NCBI GenBank assembly: GCA_032718475.1
Contig: JAUCBJ010004452.1
Coordinates: forward strand, 33,155-97,154
Reading direction: 5' to 3'
Source of the DNA: Nemertoderma westbladi
Lineage: Eukaryota; Animalia; Xenacoelomorpha
Length of the DNA stretch: 64,000 nt
Each line of letters begins with the position of its first letter. Position 1 is the first letter of the stretch. Made by a program: the position numbers and the translations under genes. The notes beneath the pieces were generated by a model. The model was given only the letters and a program-made list of their open reading frames with translations, was not told the origin of the DNA and searched no databases. Shown piece by piece: positions 7,871-32,281 of the stretch.

Positions 7871-8519
7871 TGTGACGGGATCGTTGAGTTGTCAGTGAGA
7901 ACCCGACCGGTTAGATTGTATGCGTCACTTTATTGCTGGGCTGCTGGTATAATATCTTTGGCCGAAGGCCGATGGGAAAACAATGTAGTTTGTTTCTCAG
8001 TATTAATAACCTCAGCGATAATAGCACAGTCGGAATAATACAGATATTATGAGTTAATCATACAACAGTATAGTAACAGCAAATGATATATAAATGACGG
8101 TCAAAAACTATGCCTGTCTGTAACTGTGAGAAAATCAACTGACCGGTAAATCAGAAATTAGAGTAACTATATAATTGATACATATTGGTTTCAGTCCTAT
8201 ACTACTGTGTGGCCTTTGGTACCCAATGGATGCATTCCTATCCTCCCAATCCACTTAGTGGCAGCTATTGGCTTAACTATTAATTCTCGCCTCGCCACTC
8301 CCTGTTGGTGTTACCCCCTGCTGCTAGCCTCTCTAGCTGGTTTGTCCCTCTGAGGTGGTTTGACCTCTCACCTCTCTCTGTGGCTTAGGGCATGTATCCC
8401 TCCCCCGAGTTGGTTATGAGGTGAGATTATTATTGGTAATCTCACATCGCCAACTATATTGGTAAAACGCCACTGGTCCCATTTTGGGTGGGCAATGTAG
8501 GGAATTGAATCTGCTTACA
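7871..8519 (-). repeat. 3' LTR of element A
   Basis: TGTGACGG…GCTTACA; direct repeat of 25221-25878; followed on + by CTCCCCCC (PPT on minus). Confidence 0.95.
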
Positions 8520-9230
8520 CTCCCCCCATGCTATCTTCCCGGTGAGAAGATAGCATCAACCTTAAGTGCACTTCAATTCCGCTAGAATCCAATCTATCAT
8601 TGGATGTGGGGTGGAGTTTTCTTATCGGGGTCGGCTCTCCAGACCGGCCCCCATGGGTCTGTTATTACTACCCATCCTTGGTGCAATCGCGAGCTATGTT
8701 GCACCAAGGTATCTGGTGTCTCTGTTTGAGGTCATTGTCCTCACTCTCCACACAATTTTTCTCAAATTTTCCTCATGGACCTTTGTCCCTTCCTCTCTCA
8801 CCAGTCCCTTTGGGACTCATCCTCCTTCAATGCTCGCTCCCCACGCTTGAATTGCACTCCGTTCACTTCTTCACACCCCTACGCATCCTCCCCATTCTTC
8901 CCCCAATCCCCTATACTCAACCGATATTTTATTCCCATTCTTCGTGCCCACCTGTCAGGCTTCCACATTCTCATTAGTGTGGCCACACTTGAGAAATGGG
9001 ATCCATCTAATGTCTCATCCTCCTGTCGTAGTCAATTGGTCCCCAATCCCAGTAGCTAGTTGGAAAAGGTTGTATATGACTATAGTACTTACATTGATTA
9101 TATATTCGCTTATTAATTAATTATCTACATACGTACATACTAATTGCACTTGACTATTTGCACTTAGGAGTTTGTACTCTTTCCTACATGTGGTGCCTTC
9201 CAGGCACACCCACACCCCTGTTCCTGAGTT

Positions 9231-10805
9231 CTAGTTCGCTCCTCCCATCTTCGGAAACCATCTGAGTTCTTTGCTCCTATCGTCATCTTGTCTGAGCCGT
9301 TTCCTTCCCTCCAGCTTATCCTCCTTGAGACTCCTCATCCTTGCCGATACCGTCTTACTAAGCCCCGTCGTTGGATCTTTAGGAGCAGGTGTTATCAACT
9401 CCCGGTATCGCTTCGCAGTTGGTCCCTCTGAGTATCCCTCCTGTTTCCCTCTGGTAGCATCCCACAGGATCATTTTCATCGCCCGCGGCACGTGCTCCGC
9501 CTGAAAGTCCCTGAACTCGATTATATTTTCTGGCGACCATCTGTCTAGGTATCTCTGAGTGTTAATGACTCCTCCATACGATGCCGCTGTTGCTACCTCC
9601 TGATATGTGAATGGTAGTCTCCTCTTGGTAATCTCCTGGTGGGCTCCCGCGTTGATATTAAAGAAGCCCCACTGGAACTCCTGGGCCTTCATCCTTTGTC
9701 GTGTCATGACTCCGACGTTGGCCCACTCCTCGAAGATCCAGAACTTCTCCTCGTCGTCCATCCAATCGCACTGATACCCAAAGTGCCCTCGGAAGTTGCA
9801 CTTTGAGCATCGGTTGTGCAGCCTCGGACACGCACCCATCCTATGGGTCGACTCGCGGCAGTAGAGACAGGACGTCCCCTTCTGGAAACAATACAGGCTG
9901 CTCTTTTCCTGGTGGGTTAGTCTCCCACAGTGCCCCGCCCCAAGTCGTCCTTGGCTCCGTGTGGCCTCCTGGGTCTATGGAGCCGTTGGTAGGCAAACAT
10001 CTGGACGCTATGTTCCCTACCCATGTCGATGTCCTCCTCCACCCTTGGCATCGTTTTCCCAAACACTACCCATGGTGCCGTTCCCGGTTGCTCGCCCAAC
10101 CTGATCATACTCGCCGCGAAAACCATCGCCAGCTCCCATGCTCCCAGGCCCGCTTACTGGGTTTGTCCCAGAAGGCTCTCGTCCCGCTGGCCGTCACCAC
10201 CCTCCCGCCTACCCAGTCCGTATCCGAGTGGCCGATCCTCTCTATCAGCGGCATCGCCCCGAACATGTCCTCTTCTTCCTCTCTCACCGGGAGTGGACCC
10301 GAACCCAGTAGCCCAGTAGATCCACTATGTCCCTTTCCACCTTGGTTTCCGCCCATGACTTTCCACCCCTCCAGCTTCTTCCGTCTCTTCCTTCCAAAAT
10401 CGCCCTCTGAGCCCCCTGGCATGGGCATTGCTTGCAATCCCGATGTCGACTGTTTCGGTGATTCTTCCATCCATCCCAGTTTGTCCACCAGAAACTCACC
10501 TGAGGTCTCCAATCCCCACCTCAGTTCGTCCAGGTTCTGGGCTTCGAACTCGTATTCCTCTCCCCTTATGTCCGCTTCTCTCTCTGCTGCCTCCCTCCTT
10601 TCTCTCCTCGCTACCTCCTCCAGTCTCCTCTCCTCTCCTCGACTCTATCCGCTTCCAACTTCTTCCACCTCTTGTACGGTGTGTTCACCTCCCTGTCCAC
10701 TAGGTGTCGGCTATCGTAGTATACCGATTCGCCCTTCAGCCCCGGGTGGTCTACAAGACCTTCAAAGGCCACCTTAAGGGCTCTCCTGTGATTCAGAGGT
10801 GCTTC
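9231..10805 (-). pseudogene. C-terminal part of accessory ORF of element A (acidic linker + CCHC zinc knuckles), frameshifted
   Basis: CLYCRESTHRMGAC and CSKCNFRGHFGYQC (CX2CX4HX4C); collinear with 30790-32281 of element C. Confidence 0.85.
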
Positions 10806-11382
10806 TGTGACGGGATCAGAGGATCCCGACCGGTTAATTTATGTTACACGTGACCGCACGATCGCGAAAAGAGTTTGTTGTTGTTATTCTGATCTTGATA
10901 TAAACTGATGATAATATAATATATGTAATAGCACAGTTGAAATAATGCAGTAAAGAATGATGTACCGGTAGTGATTGATAATATAGGTGACGGACAGTGA
11001 CGGTACTAAAGTGTCACCGATCTGCTCTAAGTGACTGAGATAACTGAATGGTAATGCAAGTTGATTGATAATATATATTCACTCTTACACTACTGTGGCC
11101 TTAGTACCTAGCGGATGCTCTCTTCCCTGTCCCTGATTGGCTAGTGCGCTAATTCTCGGCTCCCACCTCTGTGGGAGTGCTTCCCCCCCACTGCTGTTAC
11201 TTTCCCTCACCAGGAGGTTTAACCTCTGACCTCCCTTTGTGTGGCTCTTTGGGGTTTGTTGTCCCCGTTATTGGTTGTGTGATACGAGGTTAATTGGGAT
11301 TAATCTCGTATCCCCAATATTGCTAAAAGGTGCCACTGCTCTAACTCTATGGGGGTAATGAGCGAAATTGAATCCGCTCACA
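10806..11382 (-). repeat. 3' LTR of element B
   Basis: TGTGACGGGATCAGAGG…GCTCACA; direct repeat of 18927-19505. Confidence 0.95.
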
Positions 11383-14004
11383 CTCCCCCCCATGCTATCT
11401 TTCCGGTGAGAAGATAGCATCAACCACTGAGTGCACTTCAATTCCGCTGGAACCCGATCTACTATCGGGTGTGGGGTGGAGTTCTCTTACTTGGAGTCGG
11501 CTTTCCAGGCTGCTCCCTCTGGGTATGATGTCACTACCCTCTCTTGGTGCAACCGCAACCTATGTTACACCAAGACATCTGGCATCTCGGTTTGAGACAA
11601 TTGTGGATTTCTCTCACACAATTTTAAAAGCTCTCTCACTCAAACTCTAACTTCTCACTCTACTCTACTTTGGCTCCACTCTAACTCCTCTCTACTCTCT
11701 CTTACTCTCTCCCCACACCTGAATCGCACTCGTCTGCACTCTCTCTCGCCAACAGCTCCTCTCCATACTCCTCTCATACTGCCCTCAAAGGCGCTAAGTC
11801 TCTTATGTTACCCCTGTGCTATCATTCTATCTACTTACTACTTACTTGCTACTTCACTCTACTAACTCTGCTAACTTTACTAACTATACCAACTATACTA
11901 ACTATACTAGCCTTCTTACTTTCTACTAACTCTCTACTAACTCTTCTAAGTCTACTAGCTCTCTACCTCTACTAACTCTCTACCTCTACTAACTCTACTG
12001 ACTACGTGGCGCTTTCGGTGCCCACAACCACTCTGCTACTACCTCTATCTACGTGGCGCTTCCGGTGCCCACAACCCCTCTATTCTCTTTCTACGTGGCG
12101 CTTCCGGTGCCCACAACCCCTCTGCTACTACTCGTGGCATGTCAATATACCACACTCCCTATACCCGCCGACTTCTAACCCTCCCGGTACTACGTACCCT
12201 CCTACTCCCGTGGTATGTCTATATACCACACTCCCTATACCCGCCGACTTCTAACTTAATGGTACTACGTACCCTCCTACTCCCATGGTATGTTAATACC
12301 ACACTCCCTATACCCGCCGACTTCTAACTTCTTACTAACTTTCTTACTAACTCCTACTTACTTACTATCTTCTAACTACTACTTACTATCTAACTTCTAA
12401 CCTTCTAACTTTCTTATTTAATTATTTTTATATTTTTACTTATTTTTAATTATTTATGTGTGGGAAGGCCGTCTCGCCCTCATTCCCACCCCCCCAGTCC
12501 AAAATATTGGACGACTAAACTTCAACTAACTTCATCTAAACTTTGAGGGCGATTCTTCCAACAGGCACTCTACCACTGCTCCCCTTGTAGGTCCTGTAGG
12601 ATTCGCCACACTCTCCTCACCAATTCCAACTCACCAGGAATTGGTTCTCCCTCTTCTACCACCCTAAAATCGGGTCACTCCGCCGCCTTGTCAATACCCT
12701 GATCTCCTGGCAGCAAAATGCCACCCTTCATCTGGTCGCCTCCCGGCAGCAGAATGGAAAGAAACTGAAAGAACAGACAAAACAGAACGAACAATAGTAA
12801 TCCTATCCCTTTCCATCTTGTCTTCTTACTCGACCTCCCCCTTGTTGGTATGCCTCTCAACCGGACCGGCGTCTCTTCCGGACACTCCTCTGGACACTCC
12901 TCCGGACACTCCTTCCGACACTCCTCCGGACTGTTGTCCTCCGGACATCTCGCCGTCCGCTCCTCCGGGTTGTCCTCCGGACATCTCGCTGTCCGCTCCT
13001 CTCCATCCCCATACCGATACTTGCTGGGACCCTTGTTCCATCCCATTGCCTCTAAGTCTTCCGCATCAAATCCATTCTCCTCCGCCCACTCCCCTACTGT
13101 TACTTCCCCATCTGGCTCATCTACCATCTCCGGTTTCTTCTCTTCGTCCTCTGCGTCTACGGTGCCTGGTAACATGCACCCTGATGTCTCCGTAACCCTG
13201 GATGGAATCTTGGTTTTAACTGGGCCACTAAGCGTCCATCCGAACAGCGTGAGGATCGCCGTCGGATCCCGCTGTCTGTCTTCGCTGAAGACCGTCTGCA
13301 TTCTCTCGTGGGCCGTCGGGCAGTCCATTCCTACTATAATGGATACCTTCCTAACGTCCACCTCTGGTATTGATAAATCGATACTGTCCAGGAATCTATA
13401 TTGTTCGACTTCAATGTTGGTTGGTCGCCTGGCATTGATATTTATCGATTCACCTGGATGGGGTCGATCATCGCCCCATAATCGCATCCCGGTGCTATTG
13501 CTGCTATCTTGCACCGCTCCGTCCTCATCTCCAGGACCTCATCCGTACTTGAGACGGTAGTTACCGCCATCCTATTCAGCCTCGTCTTTAGCCCTATCTC
13601 TTCTGCCACCCAATTCTCCACCAGCGTGAAGGCTGCTCCGCTGTCGACCAGCATTAATGTTGTGACTGATCGGCCACCTCGTCCTGTTATCTCACTGGTA
13701 CTACCCCGAGTAGTACTTTCCTCTTTCTCCTTACTCCTGTCGTGCTCGTAGCCATGGTTTGGCCTCCAGTCTCATCCTCTCCTATTGCTGTTTATCTACA
13801 CTCTCCGGATCTGTGTCCTTCTACCACACAATGATGACATAGTCTGTTTGCGTCTGTGTAGGCTACACGATCTTGTTTGGGCAACGCTTGCCAGTGCTTA
13901 CAACTCATGGTCTTATGGGTTCCATCCCTATGCAGTTGACATTCGAATCCTGGATTGTAGCGTTCCCTGTATAGTCCCTCACGTATCGCGCGTAGGTTTA
14001 TATC

Positions 14005-14553
14005 TGTTTCGCTCATGAGCGAAAGTTACTACTGTACTTAAAAAAGTATAATCCCGTTTAAGTTATTTTGAGAGACAGATATACTGGTTACCGCAGTACC
14101 GGTACGAGAATTTATTATTGTATTATTGTATTATTTTTGTTGCATTGAATGTAGGCCTACCTTTTCAGTGTATAGCTGTATTGCGTTTGGAGGTGGACAG
14201 ATGGGCCTACCGCTGTACGGCAGTAAGGCTTCTACCGGCTGTGTGGTGAATATTGTTTATACTTATGTCTTTGAGGAGTGGAGACAGAACTGGTTCGAAT
14301 CTATCTACTGTCAGACTGTTGCTGCATGTATTCGAATTCAACCAACCGTATAGTTTTTGAACCAACCCTGTATTTGGTATTGATTGAAGCTTACTATTTA
14401 CTGATTTATATATATGTATGTACGTGTTTCGATGGACCCCGTATGCCGTATTTATTATTAATATAAAAGCAACTAAGCTTTTACTGCAATGGCAGTTCTG
14501 GGTGTAGATCTTTTTTCATTATATTATTTCATCGATGGTGGCACGGTGAAACA
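14005..14553. mobile_element. Solo LTR (549 bp) of another family inserted in gag of element B
   Basis: Ends TGTTTC…GAAACA with 5-bp TSD ATATC (14000-14004 / 14554-14558). Removing it restores gag NSKQVDINLRAIRE, matching NTKPLDMNLRTICE in A. Confidence 0.85.
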
Positions 14554-17123
14554 ATATCTACCTGTTTACTGTTTTGGTTATCTGGACTCGGCCTACTGGG
14601 TGTGCTGGGATCTTGTTTATTTGTGTTGTTATTTTCTTTCTGTCCCTGCCACGGTGTGGCCTTACTCCCAGCTAACTGTGGACTAGCAGTCCCCTGTGTG
14701 GCCGCGTGTGGTAGCGATTGTCTTACTCTCGGGAATGGATCTGCAGGATTGTGTTCGGGTTTAGGCCTGTTGTATTCGGTCTTCGGTGCCTTCCCCAAAC
14801 TATCCTCACTATAGACTGGGTCTGTAATCAACTCGGCTTCGTAGTTGAAGAAGTTTGACATTTCCTCTAGCCCTGGCTCCGCACCTTTCTTCTCCCGAGT
14901 GGAGAAGGCGATCTTCCTCCACTTGCTCCATAACCAGATCGGCAGTGCCTGCGCTATCGTGGTGATGTTATTAGATGCGTTGAGTTCGTATGGCGCGTCT
15001 AGCATCTTCAACACGATTAGCGCCTTCTCAACTTTGTTCGCAAACGTCTTTATACTAACGGGGTTATCCTGTAGGCCACCCAATCTTGGCCGGGTGCCCG
15101 TACTCCCTGTCTAGCGCCCGCCATGCTGTCGTGAAGCCTCCCTCGATGCCCTGGTACTGCCTCACGATGTCGTATGCTGGGCCTCCTGTATACACCTGTA
15201 GATATTTTAGGCACTCTGCCTGTGTCAGGTTCTTTGTCAATATTTCATTGCTGTACATGCGCCGAAATTGCAGGTATTCTTCCGGCCTACTTCCATCGAA
15301 TTTAAATGGTTCTACAGGTGGTAACTCGATTCTGGTCTTCAATGCATCGATTAATGTAGCCATTCCCATCGCCTGTGCTTCCAATGGGTTCGATGGATGC
15401 TGTACAGATTCTCCCGTTGGGTGCGGTCCGCCTGTCCTGTCTGTTGCCCTCCTTTGCGTCGGATATATCATTGGGGGTAACGGCTCCCTCCATATTTCCG
15501 TGTCACAAGATTTGTTCTTGTCCAGGGGATTCGATGTTCTTATTCCTGTTTGAGTATATTGTTGATATTGTGATGGGGGAATGTCACCCTGCCCCCCCCC
15601 CCCTCCCCACCAGTATGTTTGGTACTGGGGTTGATGTTAATATATTGGGGCCCATACACCTATCCGCAATAACTCTCCCCTCCCCTGGATATATGTTATG
15701 TCCCTGCATATTATAGTCATGCTGCTGTGCTGGTACCGATATAGGCCTATCCACTTCTTGCCTACCTACTGGCATGTACTCCGCGACTTCCGGATCTAAT
15801 CCCGTCGTTCGCGCTACCCTATCGCCTACACTATCTCTCCCAGCATGGCCTATAGTATGTGCAGTAAGGCCTACAGTATGTTCTGCAGTCTGCATGTGCC
15901 CTTCCGAACCGAGGTTTAATCTTCTCGAATCTCGAACCTCCCCGCGACTACCATACTCTCGATCGGCAGCTATATCCCATCGGGAAGTTTCTCTTCGATC
16001 CCCTCTCCTGTTCTCGTCTTCGTATCGGTACGTCCTGTACCCCTCTCCTGGCGTGTGGTGCGTCTCTCCAGGGCGACGGCAATCTCCCGGAGTTCGACCC
16101 CACTGACTCCCTAACTCCATCTCTACTACCGACAGTTCGCTATCTGTCCTTACTCTTCGGTTGCTCGTAGCAACGATTCTTCTATTCTCTTCACTTCTTC
16201 TCTCTTCGACCTCCCGGTTACACTCTACTATTCTTCTTCTCTCTTCCGACTGACGTCTTCTCGCTCGCCCACTCTCGGCGCTAACATCTGACTCTACTCT
16301 GTCCGGCTGGACCCTCCTGGGGATACTCGCCATCCCCCTACTATTCTCCGTCGTCGGGTGCTGCGGTTCACCTATCTCGCCGACGCCTGTGGGACATTCT
16401 CTGCCCCCCCCCCCCTCTCGCTACTAATCTCTCGTGGTGGGGCGCCTGTAGCCCCCCCCCCCCCCCCCCACCTGCTGCTTCTTACTTCACTACCTCTTAC
16501 TTCACTTCTACGTCCTTCTTGTGGGGCACTCTCTGCCCCCCCCTCTCTCGCCACTAATCTTCCGTGGTGGGGTGCCCGTAGCCCCCCCCCCCCCCCCCCC
16601 CACTCGCCACTTCTTACTCCACTACCTCTTACTTCGCTTCTAAGCCCCTCTTGTGGGACATTCTCTGCCCCCCCTCTCTCGCCACTAATCTTCCGTGGTG
16701 GGGCGCCCGTAGCCTCCCTCCCCCCACTCGCCACTTCTTACTTCGCTACCTCTTACTTCGCTTCTACACCCCTCTCTAGTCGACGCACTGTCTCTACTGC
16801 AGCTGGGTCTACTCACCCCCGCCTCTCCCTGTGCAACTGCGTGGCCTGGCAGGCTCCCGTTGGGTTGACTCACCCCCGTTACTCCCTGCCTAACATACGT
16901 GGCCTTGCAAGCTCCCGTCGGGGTCACTCACCCCCGCTACTCCCTGCGTACTAACTACGTTGCCTTGCAGGCTTCGGTTGGCCGGACCACCTGTGTCTTC
17001 TATATTAGTATTAATAGCCCCGTTATCAATATTATTATTTTCTAAATTATTCAAATTATTTGAATTATTCTGTATATTTAAATTTAAATTATTATTATTT
17101 TGTGTATTTGAATTAGAATTATT

Positions 17124-17352
17124 TTTTTTTAATTATAATAATTATTTATTTTATTAATAATATCCAAATCCATTAAACCAAAATTAAATATAAAACTGCA
17201 CCAGCATCCCACCACCAATCAGAACAAAACAATTAAGACAATAAGATTTAACATACAATTAAAAATGGTGCACCGTGAGTTAATAATGGTCTGCGAGGTC
17301 ATTCCCCCGCAGACCCGCACCATCCCCAAAGCCCAGCGCCCTCCAGGGACGC
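17124..17352 (-). mobile_element. Short retroposed (LINE 3' end/SINE-like) fragment in gag of B
   Basis: GC-richer segment with adjacent T-run, flanked by ATTAGAATTATT (17112-17123 / 17353-17364). The host region is itself repetitive, so the TSD is weak evidence. Confidence 0.4.
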
Positions 17353-18926
17353 ATTAGAATTATTCAGATTATTTTGAATATTTGAATTAGAATTATTATT
17401 TTCTGTATTTAAATTAAAATTATTATTTTCTGTATTTAAATTAAAATTATTATTTTCTGTATTTAAATTAAAATTATTATTTGGATTATTTGTATTTAAA
17501 TTAGAATTACCGGATAAAACATTACTTCCTGCAATGAAAGTTTGGTTAGGGTTGTCTAATACGGTACTATTAATATTAATTTCTTCTAATGTATTTTTAT
17601 TACCCCCCCCCCCCCCCCGCCCGTACGGTTACACCAGTTCTGGTTCTGTCGTCCGGTGCCTGTAAGTGGGATATTAACAAACGTTTCCACTACTTCTGGC
17701 TCCTCGTAAATACTACCCGAGCCAGCCTCACTCTCCGATAGTCCCAACTGCGCCAGTTCTAGTCGGCGCTTCTGCTTGGCCTGATACTGCATAAGCCCCC
17801 TTAGCCGGGCATGCATATCATCCCGCATACACTTTCCCGCTCTCTCTCTCTCTCTATCCTCCCGTAAACTCTGCTCGGCCAACTCTGCCTCTCTCGCCTC
17901 CCGCTCTCTACAGTTTCTCGCCACCCTCTCAGCCCTCTCTTTATTCTCTCTCACTAACTCTCTCTCTTTCTCTAATAACGCAGTTCCCTCATCCAACTGC
18001 CTCTCTAATTCTTTCTGGTCTAGCGCCGCAATGTCTAGTTGACACGCCAGATCTATCTCTAACACCCTTCTTGCTTTGGCGGAGGATGTAGCGGACTTAT
18101 CGGTCACGACGGACTCCCGTCGCCTCTCTGTCCTACTAACTTTCCCCCACTTTCCAGGGTTCTCGCTAACCGACGAGACCGAATCCTCGGAGTTAACCTC
18201 GGGTTCGCCCTCGTGCGGGTCTGCCCAACCCACTAACTTAATCCCCCTAGCATCCACTAAATACGGCCCTATGTACACTACTTGGGGCTCCATTATCCCG
18301 GATCGCCACAGTTCAAATAGTTCAGTGGCGACCCCCCTCGCTCTCTCACTGGCTAGTTCTCCCTGTCCGAAGCGAACTAGGTATCTAAAATGTTTATTCG
18401 ACTCACCTAGTCGCTGGCTCAACTTCCCTTGGTCTATCTTTACTCCTTCTCTGGCTCTGGCCTCCTTGAGCTGTTTCTTTGTTGCGTTGTAGGCTCGTCG
18501 GAGCCAGTCACTGGTTCCGACGTCCTCGTCGCCGACCTCTCCTCCTCCCCTCCTGGTACGGCGTCGTACCGGCGGCCCCACCGTCGCCGTTCCGGTGGGC
18601 CATCCGTCGCCCTCAGCCTGTAGCTGGCCGGCGACATCGGTACTTCGACCGCCATCGTGCGTTGACTCGTCCTCTCGTCCTGGTAGATGGCCGCCCTCCG
18701 CTTGGGCTGCCGGATCGTCTCTCTCCGGCGAGTCCGGCATTGCGGGTCGATACTGTCGCGTCGCGGCCTCACGGATCGTTTCGTTGGTATCATCCAGGGT
18801 CCGCGGCGGTGTCGTCTCTCCCTCTAGATTTCAGGGTTCTCCGCTCATCTTTTAGCATCCTCCCTGGTGGCTGGCAGTCACAGTTCTAGCAGTACCTTAG
18901 ACTTTAGTACTAGGTGACTTTAGTAC

Positions 18927-19505
18927 TGTGACGAGATCAGAGGATCCCGACCGGTCAATTTATGTTACGCGTCACTGCACGATCGAGAAAAGAGTTTGTT
19001 GTTGTTATTCTGATCTTGATATAAACTGATGATAATATAATATATGTAATAGCGCAGTTGAAATAATGCAGTAAAGAATGATGTACCGGTAGTGATTGAT
19101 AATATAGGTGACGGACGGTGACAGTACTAAAGTGTCACCGATCTGCTCTACGTGACTGAGATAACTGAATGGTAATGCAAGTTGATTGATAATATATATT
19201 CACTCTTACACTACTGCGGCCTTAGTACCTAGTGGATGCTCTCTTCCCTGTCCCTGATTGGCTAGTGCGCTAATTCTCGGCTCCCACCTCTGTGGGAGTG
19301 CTTCCCCCCCCCGCTGCTGTTACTTTCCCTCTCCAGGAGGTTTAACCTCTGACCTCCCTTTGTGTGGCTCTTTGGGGTTTGTTGTCCCCGTTATTGGTTG
19401 TGTGATACGAGGTTAATTGGGATTAATCTCGTATCCCCAATATTGCTAAAAGGCGCCACTGCTCTAACTCTATGGGGGTAATGAGTGGAATTGAATCCGC
19501 TCACA
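18927..19505 (-). repeat. 5' LTR of element B
   Basis: Direct repeat of 10806-11382; minus-strand TATA-like run (~19190-19200) and TCAGTT Inr-like motif (19163-19168). Confidence 0.95.
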
Positions 19506-19921
19506 GCTTCTGATAGTAGAAACGCCATCGGCTCTCTTCCGATAATCACGGTAATGAATAGGTTTAATAAACCTATCATTATCCAGTCCTCCTGTAAGAT
19601 ATATCTCTTCTGATATATCTTTATCGCTCGCCTTCGGAACTGATATACCTCCTGCTTTCCTGGTCTCGCTCCCCATTTCAGCGAGTTCGCAAGTTCTGTT
19701 TGTTTTGGCAAGTTCCTGGAAGAATACGGAGCGGAACTTGCTCCAGTCCATCGGCTTGTGGCAGACGAGCCCCATTAGTTGGCCCATCGCCATGGCTCCG
19801 CAATGTCCCGTGTTCTCCACCAATCCCAACCCCTCTGGTCTCATCATAGCCATATAGACTACTTGCATGTCCAGGAGATAGTCTTCTCCGACTTTCTCCT
19901 CTTTACTAACTTCTCTGCCAT
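19506..19921 (-). pseudogene. N-terminal/exonuclease part of accessory ORF of element A (internally deleted)
   Basis: MAEKLVKRRKSEKT is joined directly to LLDMQVVYMAMMRPEGLGLV…IYQKRYILQEDW; homologous to 29796-30760 of C. Confidence 0.85.
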
Positions 19922-20306
19922 CACAAACTTTCCCGCTCTCACCTAACTGGTGGGGCCTTACAAAGGCTCAGTTTAAGTGAGGGTGGTTAAACAGGATGTT
20001 AAAAGTTTCATTCAGTGATAGCCTATGTCCTACGTTATGCTTTTCTTGGTTTTGCTATTATTTATATTCCCCCTTCCTGTGATATTAATAACTGTCACCG
20101 GATTAGTTACTTAAGTAACCCCTCTACTTGTATACAGAGAAGACTAGCTATAATTTTTTATTACTGCGCTAGCTTCCTACCAGACAGCTTTCTGGCTCTG
20201 TAACAATTGCCTATACTTACACTACGGGCTGTGCGGTACAGTAGTCTATTTCGTGAGGCCTACACAGTCTATCCTGCTGTACCCATGTGCCCCCCGCTTC
20301 CCTCCG

Positions 20307-20832
20307 TGGCGCCCTCAGTGCCCACAAGTTCTACGGTACTATGTACCCTACTACTCTGGTATGCGTACATACCCCCCAATTCCTCACGTGGCGCCCTCAG
20401 TGCCCACAGCTTCTACGGTACTGTGTACCCTACTACTACGGTATGCATACATACCCCCCAATTCCTCATGTGGCGCCCTCAGAGCCCACAGGCTCTACGG
20501 TACTATATACCCTACTACTATGGTATGCCTACATACCCCCCAATTCCTCACGTGGCACCCTCAGCGCCCACAAGTTCTACGGTACTATGTACCCTACTAC
20601 TACGGTATGCGTGCATACCCCCCAATTCCTCACGTGGTGCCCTCAGCGCCCACAAGTTCTATGGTACCATGTACCCTACTACTATGGTATGCGCACATAC
20701 CCCCCAATTCCTCATGTGGCGCCCTCAGCACCCACAACTTCTACGGTACTATGTACCCTACTACTACGGTATGCACACATACCCCCCAATTCCTGACATG
20801 GCGCCCTCAGTGCCCACAGGTTCTACGGTACT
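20307..20832. repeat. 82-bp tandem repeat (~6.5 copies) between pol remnant and accessory ORF in A
   Basis: GGCGCCCTCAG recurs every 82 bp; degenerate relatives lie at ~12005-12330 (B) and ~29095-29305 (C). Confidence 0.9.
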
Positions 20833-21019
20833 TAAATTAGGTACGTTGGTACATTATTGTACCCTTCCGACATACATAATTCTAACTACCTACTAATATC
20901 TACTATCTACATTACTAAGTACTTATTTTATTATTTTGCTTATTATTTTTGTTTTTATGTGTGGGAAGGGCGTCTCGCCCTCATTCCCACCCCCCTCAGT
21001 CCAATATATTGGACTACTA

Positions 21020-21145
21020 AACTCTAAGGCGACCCTTCCAATAGACAACACTTTCCTACCGCCCTTCTGTAGGTCTTCCTATCTTTGGCCCCTATCTTTC
21101 CTCCTATCCTCACTTCCACCAATCTAATCCTTCCATCTTCGCCCC
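21020..21145 (-). pseudogene. Extreme C-terminal remnant of BEL integrase in A
   Basis: GEDGRIRLVEVRIGGKIGAKDRKTYRRAVGKCCLLEG, matching 28681-28801 of C. Confidence 0.85.
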
Positions 21146-21170
21146 CCCTCAGTCCAACTTATTGGATGAC

Positions 21171-24100
21171 TCAACAACCTAAGGGCGATTCTTCCAACAG
21201 GCAACTCTCCCACTGCACCCCTGTAGGTCCTCTTAATCTTCGCCCCACTCTCCATGTCAATTCCAACTCTCTTGGAATTGACCTTCCCTTCTCCTCCACC
21301 CTTGAATTGGGTCTTTCCGTCACCTCACTGATCTCCTCATGGTCCCCTGGCAGCAAAATGCCACCCTTCATCTTGTCGTCGCTTGGCGGTAGAATGCCGC
21401 CCTTCATGTCATCCTCCACAGTCCCTTCATCGCCTAGAACCATATAACCACCCCTGCTCACGGATTCTACAAACCTCCTCCACTCCTTCCTTGGTGGTTC
21501 CCTCGGATGCTTCGGTATCCCGAACTTCGCCTCGTATCCCTTTACTACATAGCGAAAATGCTCGAGGATCGCATTGTCCAATGACGGCGTCCCATAGGTC
21601 CCAACCAGTCATCGATCGTGCATCTCCCTAAACGGGTCTTGTAGCGCATGCGCTTTGTGACCCTTTGGTAGCAGTTTGTAGTATCCTTTCGTCTTCTCCT
21701 CCGGATGCCTCTGTGTGAAGTCCACTAGTAACTCCTTCCCAGTCTTCTCCGCTCTTGGTCTAATCTTCCCACATCTTCTCCCCTCCCACCCTGTCCTCCT
21801 ACTTGACCTCCTCCCCATCGGTATGCTTCTCAACTGGACTGGCGTCTGTTCCGGACATCTCTCTGGATCTCTCGCCGTTCACTCTTCTCCATCCTCATAC
21901 CAATACTCGACAGGAACATCTATGTTCCATCCCATCGCCTCCAGGTCCTCCGCGTTGAACCCATTCTCCTCCGCCCACTCTATTGCTGTTGCTTCTCCTC
22001 CTGACTCATCTATCAGCGGTATTTCTATGGACTTATCCTCCACCCTTTCATCACGCCCCACTATGCATGATTCCAGATTCATACCCATCCCCAACTCCTA
22101 GTGTCCTTCCCCGGGCTGCTTCTTGTTTGGGTCCTCCCCATCACCCGTCATTGGTTTCTCCTCTATGTCCTCAATAGTACCGGACAGCATGCACCCTGAT
22201 GTCTCAGACACACCAAACGGTGTCCTCGTCTTAATTGGGCCAGTGAGCATCCATCCAAATGGCGTGAGAATGGCCATCGGGTCTCACTCTCTGTCATCAC
22301 CGAAAATGGTCTGTAGTCTCTCGTGGGCTGTCGGGCAATCCATGCCGATTATGAGAGATACTTTCGGGACAGCCAGTTCGGGCACGGAGAAATCGATGTT
22401 GTCCAGGTACAGGTATTGCTCGACCTCGATCTTTGTGGGTCGCCTGGCGGTAATATTAATCGATTCTATTATTCGGATGGGTTCGATGGTATCACCATAG
22501 CAGCACCCTGGTGTTATCGCTGATATCTCGCAACACCCCGTTCTCATCCTCAAGACCTCGTCCTTACTCGAGATAGTAGTTACCGCCATTTTGCTTGGCC
22601 TCGTCCACAACCCTATCTCTTCAGCCACCCAACTTTCCGCTAGTGTGAACGCTGCTCCGCTGTCGACCAACATTAACGTCGTGACCGACCGCCCGCTCTC
22701 TCCTATTATCCACACCGGTACCACCCCGAGTAGTACCGTTCCCCTTCTCTTCGCTCCCGTGGTGCTTGTCGCCATTGTTTGGCCTCCACTTCCATGTACC
22801 TCGTCGTATTTTACTGGTGTTTCTTTGCACTCTTCGAATCTGTGTCCTCCTACCATGCATCGATGGCATAGTCCATTTATACCAGTGTAGGCTACCCGAT
22901 CTTGTTTAAGCAACGCCTGCCAATGTCTGCAATTCATGGTCTTGTGGAATCCGTTTTTATGTAATTGGCATTTGTATTTTGGATTGTAGCATTCCTTGTA
23001 TAGCGCTTCACATATCGTGCGTAGATTCATATCTAGTGGTTTAGTGTTTTGGTTATTTGGACTCGGCCTACTGGGGGTGTTGGGATTATATTTGTTCGTG
23101 TTATTATTTTGTTTCTGTCCCTGCCACGGTGTGGCCCTACTCCCAGCTGTCTGTGGACTACAAGTCCCCTGAGTTTCCGCGTACAGTAGTGATTGTCTTA
23201 ATTTTGGTAGTGCATTCGCCGCACTGTGTTCGGGTTTAGGCCTGTTGTATTCAGCTTTCGGCACCTTCCCCAGACTGTCCTCGCTGTAGACTGGGTCTGT
23301 AATCAATTCCGCTTCATAGCTAAGGAAGTTCGACATCTCCTCCAGCCCTGGCTCCGCACCTTTCTTCTCCCGGGTGGAGAAGGCGCTCTTTCTCCACTTG
23401 TTCCTCAGCCAGATCGGTAGTGCCTGCGCTATCATAGTGATGTTATTCGATGCATTGAGTTCGTAAGGTGCATCTAGGGTCTTTAATACAATCAGTGCCT
23501 TTTCGACTTTATTTGCGAAGGTCTTAATGCTGACAGGGTTATCCTGGAGTCCGCCTGATGTTATTCCCCTTAAGGTTTGTCGGATAATCTTCGCAGGATG
23601 CCCGAATTCCCTGTCCAGGGCTCGCCATGCAGTCGTGAATCTTCCTTCAATATATTTTGATATATATTTATATATTATTTTGTACACCAATATTAGGGTT
23701 ACTACTACCGGGTAAAATATTATTTCCTGCAAGAAAGTTTTGATTAGGGTTATCTATTATGGTACTATTAATATTAACTTCACCGGATGTATTATTATGA
23801 CCCCCCCCCCCCCCCCCCCCCCGGCTCGTACGGTCACACCAGTCTTGGGTCTGTCGTCCGGTACCTGTAAGTGGGGTATTAACAAAGGTTTCCATCACTT
23901 CCGGTTCCTTGTAAATACTACCCAAACCAGCCTCGCTCTCCGAAAAACCAATTTCTGCCAGTTCTAACCGGCACTTTTGTTTTGCTTGATATTGTATTAA
24001 CCCCCTCAGCCGGGTATGCATATCATCCCTCAAGCGTTTGCCTGCCCTCTCTCTCTCTCTCTCTATCCTCCCTCATACTCTGGTTGGCTAATTCTGTCTT

Positions 24101-25153
24101 CCTCGCCTCCCGCTCTCTACACTCTTTCGTTTCCCTCTCTACCCTCGCTGCCTCTCTCGCTTCTTGCTCTTTGCGCTCGTTCACTTCTCTCGCCTCACCC
24201 TCTCTAAAGTTTCTCGCCACTCTCTCGGCCCTCTCCTCACACTCTCTCGCTAATTCTCTCTCCCTCTCTAGTAACGCAGTTCCCTCAACCAACTGCCTTT
24301 CTAGTTCCTTTTGATCTAGCGCAACAATGTCTAATTAACACGCCAGATCTATATCTAACACCCATCTTGCTTTCGCGGAGGAAGTAGCGGACTTATCGGT
24401 CGCGATGGACTCCCGTCGCCTCTCTGTCCTACTAATTTTCCCCCGTTTGCTGGGGTTCCTACTAACCGACGACACCGAATCCTTGGGGTTAACCTCGGAT
24501 TCGCCGTCGTGCGGGTCTGCCCATCCCACTAACTTAATCCCCCTCGCATCCACTAAGTAAGGCCCTACGTACACTACATCCGCCTCCATCACCTCGGATC
24601 GCCACAATTCTAATAGTTCTGTGGCTACCCCCCTCGCCCTCTCATTCGCCAGTTCCCCCTGTCCAAAACGGACTAAATTGCGAAAGTGTTTATTGGACTC
24701 ACCTAGCCTCTGATATAGTTTAGGCTGGTCTACCTTTCTCCCTTCCTTGGCATCCTTTAACATTCTCTTGGCAGTGTTGTACGCCCGTCGCAGGCGATCA
24801 CTCGTCCCGACGTCCTCCTTGTTGACTCTACCTCCCCTCCTCGTCCGGCGTCGTACCGTCGGCCCCACCGTCGCCGATTCCGGTGGGCTGTTCGCCGCCC
24901 TCGGCCTGTGGTTGGCCGGCGACTTCGGTACTTCGACCGCTGTCGTCACCTCGCGTCGACTCCTCGTTATCTTTCCCTCCTCGTTGTCAGCCACCCTCCG
25001 CTTGGGTATCCGGACCGTCTCTTGCTGGCGAATCCGGGGTGGCGGGCCGGTATCATCTCGTCGCGGCCTCTCGGATAATTTGGTCTGTGTTGTCCGGGGT
25101 CTGCGGCGGCGTTCTTTCTCCCTCCGAAATCTGGGGCGTGTTTCGTTGTCCAC
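21171..25153 (-). pseudogene. gag-protease and post-protease chimeric region of element A
   Basis: ORFs 24335-25153, 24023-24292, 23668-24033, 22284-23732 and 21879-22094 are collinear with B; protease LMLVDSGAAFTL; several stops and frameshifts, plus a deletion relative to B. Confidence 0.9.
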
Positions 25154-25220
25154 TCATGTTTTCTCTTCGGGTCGTAATCACAGTTAGTTTGTCTTAGCTG
25201 CCTGATGGAAAGTTTTTCAC

Positions 25221-25878
25221 TGTGATGGGATCGTTGAGTTGTCAGTGAGATCCCGACCGGTTGGATTGTACGCGTCACTTTATTGCTGGGCTGCTGGGCT
25301 GCTGGTATAATATCTTTGGCCGAAGGCCGATGGGAAAACAATGTAGTTCGTTTCTCAGTATTAATAACCTCAGCGATAATAGCACAGTCAGAATAATACA
25401 GATATTACGAGTTAATCATACAACAGTATAGTAACAGCAAATGATATATAAATGATGGTCAAAAACTATGCCGGTCTGCAACTGTGAGAAAATCAACTGA
25501 CCAGTAAATCAGTAATTAGAGTAACTATATAATTGATACATATTGGTTTCAGCCCTACACTACTATGTGGCCTTTGGTACCCAATGGATGCATTCCTATG
25601 CTCCCAATCTACTTAATTGCAAGCTATTGGCTTAACTATTAATTCTCGCCTTGCCACTCCCTGTTGGAGTTACCCCCTACTGCTAGCCTCTCTAGCTGGT
25701 TTGTCCCTCTGAGGTGGTTTGACCTCTCACCTCTCTCTGTGGCTTAGGGCGTGTATCGCCCCCCCGAGTTGGTTATGAGGCGAGATTATTATTGGTAATC
25801 TCGCATCACCAACTATATTGGTAAAACGCCACTGGTTCCATTTTGGGTGGGCAATGTAGGGAATTGAATCCGCTTACA
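25221..25878 (-). repeat. 5' LTR of element A
   Basis: Direct repeat of 7871-8519 with a small GCTGCTGG duplication; TCAGTT Inr-like motif on minus at 25495-25500. Confidence 0.95.
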
Positions 25879-25883
25879 AATAC

Positions 25884-27400
25884 ACTCACCAACGCGTTTT
25901 ATTAATTTGTAGCTGGGAATACGAGTTTTTTTCCTCAAATTGGGGAAAGAGATAGGGGTGAAATGCATACACTCCCTCATAAGCATGACCTAGATAATAC
26001 CGATGGTGCGATTTGCAGTGAAGATCTGCACTGGCTTCCCCAGCTTGTATGTATCGAAGTACAATTAACTCGTCTACACTTTCGATGTGTTGGCTAAAGA
26101 GGCAATCCCAACTAGCGTATCCTTTAAGTTGACATTAATGACATTGCATCATAAACTGACGACATACAGTGAAGATATGCTTATTATTGATGCAGCAATA
26201 AGCATTAAGGGTTGGTCTTTGAAATAAGAATAAAGTTCTTCTGATTCTGGTGAGTAGAATCTCGGCATGCTTCTCCACTAGCTGATTCATCTCATCACAT
26301 TGATGTCGCTTTTCTTCTAAGAAATCAGATAGGAAGTATACGTATCTCGAATCGATATCTTTCTCCAGGTTCATATTGGGTCACTACAGGAGGGAGGAAT
26401 GCGGGTTCTAGGTGCAAACATCTTTAAAGATAGCAAACCCAGCGCTAACCAGTTTCTCAGCGGCGGCGTCCCGGAGACTGAGTTTCATCAACGCGGGATC
26501 TTCAAACTGACTATCAACATTCCGAAACGGAGTCAGAAAGCACTTAAAACATTCAAACCGAATGAACTTATTAAGTCTTTATTACATTCATATTTGGAAA
26601 GTTTAGTTCCCAAGATGAGGGGATGGGAACGCATTGTTCGGCTTCACACATTGGTTAACCATCAGGAAAGTGTGGTGTTCTGAAATATGGCATAGATGGC
26701 CAAGGAAGTATGGAGGGGAACACTTGTGAAACTATAAAATGCGCAAATCGTGATATGCTTCTCCTCGAGCTGATTCCCCTCTTCTGTCGTCTGAGTTTTT
26801 CCCTAAAAACTCTGGGAAAGAATACACACGTTCATGATCATGATCGATGTCATGATGGATTCGTGGTTTATCGCGACATTGTCTTTGCGCATGGAATCGA
26901 AATAAAACCATCTCAGTTTCTGTGTCTAGATGGTCCGTATTGTGTAGATCAATAGGGTGGCATGTAGTTAGGAATCCATATACATACCATTTCGATGAGT
27001 GTAGCGTGCAGTGAATTTTCGATAATCGAATTCATGCTGGAGTTGTTCTTCAGTGATCGGTGGTTCGATATAACATCCATCATCAGCTGTCGTAGGTTTA
27101 CTAGCATCACCGCTTAATAAGTTATTATTTAGGCGCTTGTTGTCACTGTCAGCCAAATGAGTTATTATATTATCTTTAATCGTCTCGAAAGTATCACTGA
27201 GGTTGACTCCAGCATCCAATATTGTTTCTGTTGGCAAAGCGGCCAACAAATTGGATCTCATTGCTGCATTTGGGTGTCCTTCAAGCACGGCTTCCACTCG
27301 TTGGAACCATACTCTAGCGTCTTCCTCATAGAATTCTGGTAGTTTTACCTTCTGTGGATATGAATGTGGTGTTTACGGATGAGGTACCTTCTGGCTGTTG
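25884..27400 (-). pseudogene. 5' part of decayed unknown ORF interrupted by element A
   Basis: ORFs 26968-27297 and 26135-26374 plus intervening, mostly open minus frames with sporadic stops/frameshifts; no recognised domain. Confidence 0.4.
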
Positions 27401-28123
27401 AACCGATTGACTCTTCTGTATATGCGATGGAAGAATCTTAATTGCGTGTATTATAATTAATCAATATAATTAATCTGATTAAATTACATATTGGTTACTC
27501 TAACATCCTTCATTAGCCTCGTTGCGCTCATCCTGTTGTGTCTCAATTTTTATTCTTGACGCAGACTCACGATCATTATAACCATGCAAAGTCTTAGTGT
27601 GTCGGTGTAACTGCTGATTTATGGAAAGTGGATACTCGTATCCACTGTGAAACTTGTTGTGTTCGTTCTGTAGAATCTGGTCACCAAATATTTACCTTAC
27701 AACATTCAAATATCATTAAAATTATATTATAATTTTTTGGGAGAGTAGTCGTAACGCGACTTAGAAAGTCACGGTACAGCTACTCTAAAAGTCACATTAC
27801 GGCTACTTGTCGCGTTATGGCTAATCTATTGTCTTGGTTTTACATAGGGAATCATAATTAATATTATTATATTCTATTGTGTTTGTACAGATGAGGTCCG
27901 AAATGTAAGCAGATTCAATTCCCTGCACTACCCAGTGGAAAATGGGGAAAGTGGCTTTTTACCAATTATAGTAGGGAAGGTGACATTAGTAATATAATGT
28001 CACCTAATAACCAACATAGGCAATACACATTGCCAGCCATAAGCGGAGTTGAGAGGCCATAAACCATCTCAAGGGGACAAAGGGGCTAGCAAGAAAGGAT
28101 AATGGCAGCAGGGAGAGATTAAT

Positions 28124-28801
28124 ACAGAGAAACGCTACGGCATTATCTTTGTTTGCAATATTACGAGGGCCATGGGGATAGAACTAGCTCAGGACGCTAC
28201 GGAAAGGAGGACGCCATAAGCACCACATATGCTGGGCTGTGTAGAGTGCCTCGTCGGAAGCTCCAAGCAGCTCATGACCAAACTCATGAATAATCATATG
28301 GTCACTGAGGACGTACTAAGGACAGTTTTGGCGAAATGCGAGGGAGTTATCAACAGCTGCCCGCTGTATCCCGAGAACGACGATCCAGAATCGCTGGACG
28401 TCCTAACGCCAGCAAACCTGCTGATGGAGAGACCAGCAACGATCGACATGCGAAACATCAACGCAGACGATATACATTCGCGTCAGAGCTGGAAGGTGGC
28501 TAAGGCGATAAGTGCCGAGTATTGGACAAGGTAGATCCAAAAGTACCTTCCAACACTGCACAAGAGGAGCAAATGGAGGAATAACCAGAGGGAGCTTAGG
28601 AAGGGTGACTTGATAATAGTCACAGATGACACAATTATCAACAATCACTGGAGGTTGGCTAGGGTAGTTGATTGCTACCCCGGCGAAGACGGAAGGATTA
28701 GATCCGTGGAAGTGAGGATCGGAGGAAAGATAGGGGCCAAAGATAGGAAGTCCTACAGGATGGCGGTAGGGAAGTGTTGCATATTGGAGGGATTGCCCTA
28801 A
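28124..28801 (+). pseudogene. BEL/Pao integrase fragment (core remnant + DUF5641-type C-terminus)
   Basis: KRYGIIFVCNITRA, LAKCEGVINSCPL, LTPANLL, YWTR*IQKYLPTLHKRSKW, GDLIIV, WRLARVVDCYPGEDGRIRSVEVR. Confidence 0.9.
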
Positions 28802-29795
28802 TTAGTTGAGTCGTCCAATATATTGGACTGTGGGGGGTGGGAATGAGGGCGAGACGCCCTTCTCTCACACTAAACACAAAATTATAAAAATAAAAATAAG
28901 TAGTAAGTAGTACCAAGGTACACTTTAGGTAGACATTATGTACGTCTGATGGGTACGGATGTACCAATGTACATAATATATAGGTGTAGGTAGTTACAAT
29001 AACGTATGTCAGATGGGTACAAATGTGCCAACGTACCTAGTTTACATACGCACCACAAGCTGGGTCAATGGGAACAATATTAATACGTAATACGCACTAC
29101 TGTAGGCACTGAGGGCGCCACGCGAGTAGTTGAGGGGGGTATGTACACATACTGTAGTAGAAGGGTACATAGTACCACAGTGAGGATTAGAAGGGGTATA
29201 CATTATGTATGTCTGGTGGGCACAATGTGCCAATGTACGTAATAATATGTGCTACTGTGGGCACTGAGGGCGCCATGTGAGGAGTTGAGGGGGGTATGTA
29301 TGCGTAGTAGAATAGACCGTGTAGGCTGCATGAACTAGACTACTGCAGTGCATAGCCCATAGTACAGACTTAGGGTATTGTTACAGAGCCGGAAGACCGT
29401 CTGGTAGGAAGCTAGTACAACAATAGGAAAACTGTAGCTAGTCTTCTCTGTATACAAGTAGAAATGAATTACTTACGTAGTAATTGTGTAGCAGATAGAA
29501 TAATAGCACATAGGGGGGATAATATAAAATAATAATAAAATAATAATAAAATAAAAAAAATTATAGCAACTGAGAGGAAGGATTCCAGAATCATGATTAA
29601 AAGCAACGGACAAAATTGCAAATTAGGACCAAAATTGACACATAGGGAAATATTTTTACCAAAAACGAACGAAAAGAGCAGATAGGAGGTAGGCCATTGC
29701 TGATCGAAGCTAATTAAGATCTTATTTAGTAACCCTCTTACCTAACTGAGCCTTTTTAAGGCACCACCAGCTTGGTAAGAGAGAGTGGATTCGTG

Positions 29796-32281
29796 ATGGT
29801 GGAGAAACTGGTGAAGAAGAGGAAGTCGGAGAAGAGCGGGAAGGAATTACTAGTGGACTTCATGCTTAGGCATCCGGAGAACAAGATGAAGGAATACTAC
29901 AAATGACTCCCGAAGGGTCATAAATCGCATGCGCTACAGGATCAGTTTAGGGAGATGCACGAGTGACAACTGGTTGGGACCTACGGAACGCCATCATTGG
30001 ATAACGCGATCGACAAGCATTTTCGCTACATTGTAAAGAGGGACTAGGCTAGGTTTGGGATACCGAAGTATGTGAGGGAACCACCAAGGAAGGAGTGGAG
30101 GAGGTTTGTAGATTCCGTGGAGAGGGGCGGATACATGGTCCTAGACGGCGAGGGGACCGTGGAGGATGACAAAGGCTCAAGAAGGGGGTCGTGAGGATCG
30201 GGTAGAACTATATTGATGCACTTAGCGGCACCGAATGGAGATATCTTTCTATTCGACCTAGGGACCTATGGGAAGAGGAGCGGGCCGAAGTTAAACCGGT
30301 TACCGAATGCGGTGCGGGAACTAGTAAGGCTGAAGACTATGGTCAAGGTAGGATCGGAGATACGAGGCGACGCGGAGAGGATTATTGGACCAGGCACCCC
30401 AAATCTTCTGGACACGCAGGTAGTCTACATGGCTATGACAAAACCAGATGGACTGGGATTGGTGGACAACACGGGACAATACGGAGCCGTGACAATGGGC
30501 CAGCTGATGGGACTCGTCTGCCACAAGCCGATGGAGTGGAACAAGTTCCGAGAGGAATACAATGCAGAGCTTGCAAACTCACTCAAATGGGGAGCAAGAC
30601 CGGGGAAGGAGGAGCTATATCACTTCCGGAAGGGAGTGATAAAGATATATCAGAATAGATATATCTTACAGGAGGAGTGGATAATGATAGGTTTGCTAAA
30701 CCTATTTATCACAGTAACTATTGGCAGGGAGCCGATGGCGTTTCTACTGTCGGGATCAGCTCTGAGCCACAGGAGAGCCTTTAAGGTAGCCCTAGCAGGT
30801 CTTGTAGACCACCCGGGGCTGAAGGGCGAATCGGTGTATTACGATACCCGACACCTGGTGACAGAGAGGTAGACACACCGTACAAGCGATGGAAGAAACA
30901 GGAGGCGGATAGAGAAGAGGAGATGAGGATAGAGGAAGTTGCCAGGAGAGAGAGGAGGGAGGCAGCAGGCAGAGAGGCAGACATAATGGGAGGTGAGTAC
31001 GAGTTTGAGGCCCAAGATTTGGATGAGTTGAGGTGGGGATCGGAGACCTCGGGTGAGTTTCGGCTGGGGGATGAGGTGGATTGGATGGAAGGGACACCAA
31101 TACAGTCTACATCAGGGCTGCAGGGAATGGCGAAGCCTGTGGAATCTGAGGGCGACTTCGGGAGGAAGAGTCCGAGGACGATGGAAGGGTGGAGGGCCAC
31201 GGGCAAATACCAGGCCGGAAAGGGACATGGTGGATCAATTGGGATCCCAGGTCTCAAACCGCTCGTAGTGGAGGAAGTAGAGGAGGACGAGTTCGGGGCG
31301 ATGCCACCAATAAAGAGAATTGGCTGGTCGGACACGGACTGTGTGGATGGGAGAGTTGTGACAGCCAGCGGGGCGAGATCATGATCCGACTGGGCGAGCA
31401 ACCGGGGATGGAACCACGAGTGGTGTTTGGGGAAACAATGCCGAGGGAAGAGGCGGATGCTGACATGGGTAGGGAGGATAACATCGAAATGTTTACCTAC
31501 CAGCGGCTCCACAGACCCAGTAGGCTATGTGGAGCCAATTACGACTTGGGACAAGAGACAGTAATAGACGGTTGCGATTACTGTGGGAGACTAACCCATC
31601 AGCAAAAGAACTGTATGTATCGTTACCAGTAGGGGATGATGTGTCTTTACTGCCGCGAGTCTACGCACAGGTTGGGCACGTGCCCAAGGTTGCACCACAG
31701 GTGTTCGAAGTGCAAGTTTTGGGGGCACTTTGAGTGCCAGTGGGACTGGATGGAGGATGAGGAGAAATTCCGCATTTTCGAGGAATGGGCCGACGTCGGA
31801 GTCATGACAAGGCAAAGGATGAAGGCCCAAGAGTTCCGGTGAGGCTTTTTCAACATTAACATACAAGCCCACCAGGAGATTACAAAAGAGGAGACTACCA
31901 ATCACGTATCAGGAGGCAGCGACAGCGGCATCATATGGAGGGGTCATTAACACCCAAAGAAATCTGGATAGATGGTCACCAGAAAATAGGATAGAATTCA
32001 GGGATTTTCTGGAGGAACCCGTGCCGCGTGCGATGAAAATGATCTTGTGGGATGCTACCAGGGGGAAACAGGAGGGACACTCAGTGGGGCCACATGTGAA
32101 GCGATATCGTGAGTTAATAACACCCATACCCAAGGATCCAACAACGGGGCTCAGCAAGACGGTATCAGCGAGAATGAGTAGCCTCAAGAACAAACAGGAG
32201 GGGAGGAAGCGACCCAGGCAGGACGATGATAGAGGTAAAGAATTGAGATGGTTCGTGGAGGGTGCGGGAGGAGCACTATAG
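29796..32281 (+). pseudogene. Accessory ORF of element C: DEDD 3'-5' exonuclease-like domain + three CCHC zinc knuckles (~830 codons, several stops/frameshifts)
   Basis: ATG 29796 is in frame with ORF 30213-30872. Motifs: YMVLDGEG (ExoI DxE), LMHLAAPNGDIFLFDL, LPNAVRELVRLKTMVKVGSEIRGDA (ExoII), NLLDTQ, QNRYILQEE (ExoIII-like). Knuckles: CDYCGRLTHQQKNC, CLYCRESTHRLGTC, CSKCKFWGHFEC. Confidence 0.75.

Follow-up and report, generated by a model that had tools for sequence, protein, structure and literature searches.

Complementarity between the post-LTR site and R points to likely self-priming in a BEL/Pao-related element of Nemertoderma westbladi

The lineage of an LTR element in Nemertoderma westbladi, here called element B, probably uses its own RNA, not a tRNA, as the primer for minus-strand DNA synthesis. 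The element lies in the window analysed here, a 64,000-nt stretch of contig JAUCBJ010004452.1 (positions 33,155 to 97,154 of the forward strand; assembly GCA_032718475.1), and is nested inside a related element, A. Self-priming is supported by the lack of TGG in either leader, by pairing of 10/10 letters from the first post-LTR base in B, and by the retention of this pairing with changed letters in A, despite 4/10 altered positions.

Two nested BEL/Pao derivatives

Element B (10806-19505, minus strand) was delimited by self-comparison of the window and a check for target-site duplications (TSDs), and is flanked by a TSD of 5 bp. Its two LTRs are 96.7% alike, and 9 of the 17 substitutions between them are CpG-type. 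As the TSDs fix the boundary, the LTR ends at 18927 and the post-LTR sequence therefore begins at 18926. The main parts of B are as follows.

18927-19505, minus strand: 5′ LTR, 579 nt, TG...CA, 96.7% identical to the 3′ LTR
10806-11382, minus strand: 3′ LTR, with the same 10-mer (see below) at 11012-11003
10801-10805 and 19506-19510, no strand: the two copies of the 5-bp TSD
11383-11391, minus strand: polypurine tract, abutting the 3′ LTR
13209-15636, minus strand: broken gag (DUF1759, two Cys-His boxes) and DSG protease

The gag of B contains DUF1759 (E 5.5e-07), and B matches the BEL polyprotein P0002 in tblastn with E-values of 1.6e-15 and 3.4e-11. An earlier, sequence-only reading of this DNA had placed B in a BEL lineage, which the gag-protease homology bears out. 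The RT (YVDD), RNase H and integrase of BEL/Pao elements had no match anywhere in B.

Element A spans 7871-25878, with LTRs that are 94% alike and a 5-bp TSD.

25221-25878, minus strand: 5′ LTR of A (its 3′ LTR is 7871-8519)

The two elements share 75-80% identity over their gag-protease blocks and 406/552 aligned letters in their LTRs. The gag-protease ORF of A matches two of 4951 longer candidates (E 2.5e-19 and 6.2e-19), both of them full polyproteins with the Pao-type domains Peptidase_A17, RT and DUF1759; in the Atlas its first match was at 0.91, with DUF1759 at 74%. A DSG motif and weak Asp_protease_2 matches occur in both elements, and a pattern search found two Cys-His boxes in B and two in A, in broken reading frames, against the triple box used as a BEL/Pao criterion. 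Judged from this coding content, both are non-autonomous BEL/Pao derivatives: B is a deleted form with gag and protease retained, and A has lost RT, RNase H and most of the integrase. Since RT is absent from both, no clade can be assigned.

A post-LTR site complementary to the LTR of element B

The sequence of B that follows the LTR, read from 18926, is GTACTAAAGTCACC. The following features, all in B, bear on its pairing with the LTR.

18917-18926, minus strand: primer-site 10-mer, directly abutting the LTR, with no TGG
19124-19133, minus strand: predicted 3′ end of the self-primer, +34..+43 of the predicted RNA, 10/10 complementary to the post-LTR 10-mer
19193-19198, minus strand: TATA-like box (TATATA), putative
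19163-19168, minus strand: Inr-like TCAGTT, with a predicted transcription start at 19166
19116-19140, minus strand: hairpin around the LTR partner (arms 19140-19133 and 19123-19116), 8 bp with a 9-nt loop, perfect only in the 5′ LTR
18901-18910, minus strand: second copy of the 10-mer, identical to the first, absent from A

The sequence-only reading had claimed that no TGG follows the 5′ LTR, and this stands with the boundary set by the TSDs; TGG is also missing from the rest of the leader, up to the first ATG in the gag frame (18848). The 10-mer 18926-18917 pairs 10/10 with 19133-19124, and the identical word is found in the 3′ LTR. An exact 10-nt complement arose by chance in 5/5000 dinucleotide shuffles of the LTR, and in 15/5000 when any start 0-5 nt after the LTR was allowed. 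Pairing is extended by 18918-18913 across a 2-nt bulge, and the reverse complementarity of 18913-18929 to 19121-19139, previously described as 17 bp with one such bulge, was confirmed, with 3/17 bp falling within the LTR.

The same reading had described the LTR partner as an 8-bp hairpin with a 9-nt loop, which is indeed perfect in the 5′ LTR but is not shared: the equivalent in the 3′ LTR of B has just 6 Watson-Crick pairs, one GU pair and one mismatch, and that of A is weak (-1.8 and -4.9 kcal/mol, versus -13.5 and -10.3 in B). The 3′ arm of the hairpin has an alternative partner in U5 (18977-18970). Of six candidate sequencing runs, three contain the stretch, with two studies represented, and one of the three may be the source of the window. 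At position 19123, most contig depth differs from the 5′ LTR letter in runs X1 (886/1015), X2 (589/630), X3 (2072/2425) and X5 (112/122), and the letter also differs in the 3′ LTR of B; with the variant letter the innermost hairpin pair opens, and contiguous pairing therefore stops at the LTR edge. A second copy of the site, also noted earlier, does exist as an identical 10-mer at 18901-18910, but it is absent from A, and at least one contig in each of X1, X2 and X3 skips the region that holds it (18886-18911). Three features are thus copy-level and lie outside the shared core: the hairpin in its perfect 8-bp form, the run of pairs that reaches into the LTR end, and the duplicate of the site.

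Over the U5 end (18916-18969), contig depth is ~10x the mid-LTR value, and 18925 is a joint to contigs that continue into other leaders; many families therefore have the U5 hairpin and the same two initial post-LTR letters.

The TATA/TCAGTT pair that had been reported upstream of the LTR partner is present, and a predicted +1 at 19166 puts the partner at +34..+43. Spacing between TATA and Inr is 32 nt in both LTRs of B and 33 nt in both LTRs of A, and this conservation predicts that the segment lies inside the RNA, at +34..+43 in B and +32..+41 in A. By eye, a loose end formed by five contigs of run X1 (19170-19200) has other letters between TATA and Inr and keeps a TATA-like word at the same distance, which hints that the spacing is retained in a further subfamily. 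In X5, one contig terminates at 25350 with 22 letters that, on the sense strand, read as poly(A), at ~+149 of an A-like LTR; with the run type of X5 guessed, this end weakly suggests that R continues beyond the primer segment.

Matched changes in element A

A covariation check between the site and R had been proposed, and element A allows it on a second family.

25458-25467, minus strand: predicted primer segment of A, +32..+41, at the same place as the segment of B
25211-25220, minus strand: post-LTR 10-mer of A, 9/10 complementary to its own R segment and 6/10 to that of B

The leader of A contains no TGG. A pairwise global alignment of A and B, blind to the primer site, sets A 25467-25458 on B 19133-19124 without gaps and likewise matches the first 10 leader letters. 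Between the two elements, pair positions 3, 4, 5 and 9 (counted from the LTR edge) are altered on both strands. The changes at positions 4, 5 and 9 are compensatory (3/4), leaving 9/10 pairs in A, but position 3 is a G-G mismatch in both of its LTRs, and the check covers two families. Cross-pairing of the site of one element with the R of the other gives 6/10 either way, and 6/10 pairs are common to A and B by descent; identity between the elements is 33/57 over R +1..+60 and 39/63 over the leader. With four random changes per strand, at least 9/10 pairs were kept in 97/200000 permutations, and under independent drift at 30-40% divergence the probability of at least 9/10 pairs is 0.015-0.002, both being post hoc figures from two elements.

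Among short contigs from four runs (23 rows), which do not join R to the site, no differences at a share of at least 20% were found in the R segment of A (25458-25467), and its neighbours (25456 and 25441-25446) do differ at that share. The G-G mismatch showed no variant at either side of the pair, the site side being covered by few copies, and it is therefore unexplained from the R side. The self-primer rule of PMC6317226 asks for at least 10 nt of complementarity, which B shows (1/2); A, at 9/10, lacks an exact 10-nt complement. In 3/4 LTRs the base after the segment is unpaired with the LTR end, as expected of a primer that ends at the LTR edge.

RNA folds and a possible structural switch

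Further helices, numbered H0 and H2 to H5, surround the predicted primer duplex, and involve the following segments.

18970-18977, minus strand: U5 arm of helix H2 in B, pairing with the 8 nt immediately downstream of the predicted primer end
18932-18949, minus strand: U5 hairpin H3 in B, ending 5 nt before the primer site
18875-18884, minus strand: leader arm of B, pairing 8/8 as H4 or 7/7 as H0
25177-25185, minus strand: leader arm of A, pairing 8/8 with the LTR end as H4 or 8/8 with R +12..+19 as H0

Helix H2 has 6-7 Watson-Crick pairs and one GU pair in 4/4 LTRs of A and B, and the stem of H3 is common to both elements, with a loop of 4 nt in B and a longer one in A. The leader arm of B has two alternative partners: R +9..+15 (H0, 7/7), or the LTR end together with the two leading letters of the site (H4, 8/8). 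H5, in which R near +24 is paired with U5, is present in A and B. The primer duplex nests with H0, H2 and H3, and is crossed by H4 and H5.

Both the MFE and the centroid fold of B contain the primer duplex, with a mean pair probability of 0.64. The fold of B is modestly better than shuffles (z -1.90, 3/100), and that of A is no better than shuffled sequence (z -0.73, 24/100). The predicted fold of A is closed: the site is buried in H4, and the primer duplex forms only at a cost of 4.9 kcal/mol. Duplex energy over the whole fragment is unspecific, since R of A reaches -25.0 with the leader of B and -20.3 with its own leader.

These folds lend themselves to another reading, to which we give a low though appreciable probability: the pairing may be a structural switch of the 5′ RNA, serving packaging, dimerisation, translation or 5′-3′ circularisation via the 3′ copy of R, with some other primer in use. 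Such a switch would suit the two near-equal folds of B (-74.0 with the primer duplex and -73.8 with H4) and the sharing of H2, H3, H4 and H5 by A and B, and it would tolerate the mismatch of A near the predicted 3′ end more easily than a primer would. It does not account for a duplex that begins, in A as in B, exactly at the first post-LTR base, where a primer must end, and the leader holds no alternative primer site (TGG).

Host fragments, decay and splicing

A small probability attaches to the idea that the site binds a host RNA fragment, such as a tRNA half or other small RNA, of which the R segment is a copy or mimic. Half-tRNA priming free of TGG is described for Ty1/copia lineages in PMC6317226, and both sites begin with GT, the same two letters through which other families' contigs are joined to the LTR (18925; X2, X3). 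The sites of A and B differ at 4/10 letters, however, which would require two fragments, each mirrored at the same R position. Rfam at E<=1 found no tRNA or other family in 18700-26000 except one chance microRNA match, and ARAGORN found no tRNA in the 64-kb window.

There is a slight chance that these defective copies no longer have their true primer site, through loss or decay, and that the complementarity arose by chance or through template switching as a side effect. A and B are indeed decayed and non-autonomous, and the leader of B contains a local duplication. Against this stand the chance rates of 0.001-0.003 for B alone and the matched changes in A; moreover, A and B transposed with TSDs and near-identical LTRs, and therefore had a working primer site. 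A primer produced by splicing within the LTR is hardly credible. In A, one GC-AG junction yields a 9-nt match that begins 3 nt beyond the LTR, but it depends on a poor GC donor and leaves the mismatch in place; in B the best junction match, at 8 nt, falls below the contiguous 10, and 4/4 R-U5 stretches have no GTRAG donor.

A proposed route of self-priming

Under the self-priming reading, transcription would start at the Inr (19166), and R +34..+43 would anneal to the post-LTR site. The leader arm would take up the 5′ end of R (H0), and U5 would pair with the bases that follow the primer (H2), next to hairpin H3. A single cut between +43 and +44 would then free a 3′-OH on a capped fragment of ~42 nt, the nuclease probably being, by analogy with Tf1, RNase H supplied in trans by an autonomous partner element. 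The primer fragment could act in cis or come from the second RNA of a dimer, and RT would extend the freed 3′-OH into U5. In retroviral logic, plus-strand synthesis copies the primer and so rebuilds the primer site. Here it would copy the self-primer, and the site would be re-templated from R in every cycle, from which matched changes in the site and R are predicted. In the competing H4 fold, the leader arm would sit on the LTR end and conceal the site, which may control initiation. Priming by fold-back of the leader arm (H4) was rejected by reasoning, as a cut there would leave no overlap for the second strand transfer.

Several points count against self-priming. In both LTRs of A, the G-G mismatch is the third pair counted from the predicted 3′ end, the fold of A hides the site, the duplex energies are unspecific, the chance figures are post hoc and two families only are compared. 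Neither A nor B encodes the RT that priming requires.

More tentatively, and with somewhat less than even confidence, we suggest that a BEL/Pao lineage may have evolved self-priming independently of Tf1, with a capped primer of ~42 nt that is cut inside R and grips both site and leader, a conserved leader arm that toggles between a closed and an open fold, and a site and LTR that evolve in lockstep.

Other repeats in the window

A third BEL-related element (27904-33179+, plus strand) has a first LTR that stops after ~220 nt and joins the integrase C-terminus directly (DUF5641, 28127-28800, E 1.7e-21); R, U5 and the primer site are therefore missing. No end of the second LTR was located. Downstream of the integrase remnant, A (8520-10804, minus strand) and the third element (29800-32960, plus strand) carry an additional 3′ coding region, which has several Cys-His boxes, gave no Pfam match and is absent from B. 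A hairpin-like inverted repeat lies directly upstream of the polypurine tract in all three related elements (11385-11425, 8520-8560 and 32919-32959).

Between A and the third element, 25880-27900 (minus strand) holds a gypsy-like gag remnant (DUF7041, E 3e-4) and a TGG-led site at 27686, where the self-complement control gave 4 nt over 217 nt examined. A stretch at 60330-64000 (plus strand) is LTR-like and AT-rich, with TGG at 60935 and a 466-aa ORF (62579-63979) that has no Pfam match; it is possibly the element D that the sequence-only reading contrasted with B as having a normal TGG primer site. TGG-led sites do exist at 27686 (minus strand) and 60935 (plus strand), but neither is verified by an LTR pair in the window. 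Elsewhere, four tandem copies of a ~2970-nt AT-rich unit with an internal palindrome occupy 36150-47480, with no Pfam match in six frames of one unit, and satellite arrays with units of 45, 51 and 27 nt lie at 53000-59600.

Significance and comparison with known systems

Self-priming is established only for Tf1 and predicted in some gypsy and copia groups, and BEL/Pao elements are described as tRNA-primed (PMC8742986). If the reading of B holds, a third superfamily would be added and self-priming would appear as a repeatedly evolved solution. It would also suggest that a BEL RNase H can cut RNA duplexes, would explain BEL copies annotated without a primer site, and may mean that such elements escape control by tRNA fragments directed against that site. 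The literature searched, which leaves out most subscription journals and Repbase reports, yielded no account of self-priming in BEL/Pao, and an earlier mention is possible. A scan of viral contigs for the U5 motif gave 0 matches, and protein scans of viral contigs for relatives confirmed 0/52 and 0/7 candidate stretches. The sole U5-motif match in metagenome contigs (L001) was GC-rich, bacterial-looking and without an LTR, and was set aside as chance.

Cer7 of C. elegans, a BEL-family element, is said to carry its own tRNA-like primer sequence. If so, it too would provide its own primer, though one that would be tRNA-like and outside R, whereas A and B show no tRNA-like fold (ARAGORN, Rfam). 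The BEL/Pao elements Tas and Sinbad resemble A and B in their DUF1759 gag, Cys-His boxes, DSG protease, polypurine tract and 0.6-kb LTRs (PMC554778). For BEL/Pao (Belpaoviridae), the ICTV profile describes replication primed by a tRNA, with an 18-nt site for the 3′ end of tRNA-Arg or tRNA-Gly (PMC8742986); A and B are without such a site.

Tcn1 (gypsy) and TAR, Houba and Osr-1 (copia) of plants are predicted self-primers with at least 10 nt of complementarity starting 0-5 nt after the LTR (PMC6317226). By the rule as given there, B fits and A misses by one mismatch, in another superfamily and another kingdom.

The closest likeness in mechanism is to Tf1/Tf2 and Tj1, which also have no tRNA site, a post-LTR sequence complementary to their own R, and extra duplexes including a U5 stem adjacent to the site. 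The Tf1 primer is the first 11 bases (11 nt) of the RNA, cut by RNase H (PMC7175516), three duplexes form a 'pretzel' around the primer site (PMC10085805), and Tj1 self-primes similarly to Tf1 (PMC4600332). The sequence-only reading had suggested a mechanism analogous to that of Tf1. The analogy gains from the matched changes in A and the shared TATA-Inr spacing, but the predicted geometry is unlike that of Tf1. The partner in A and B lies within +32..+43 of the predicted RNA instead of the first 11 bases, which would give a primer of ~42 nt, and their leader duplex reaches R upstream of the primer or the LTR end, not the LTR downstream of the primer as described for the pretzel. Unlike Tf1/sushi elements, A and B have a BEL/Pao gag-protease, and are here known from sequence alone; their proteins gave no chromodomain or gypsy match and instead match BEL polyproteins. 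If B is self-primed, it works like Tf1, yet it is no member of the Tf1/sushi group.
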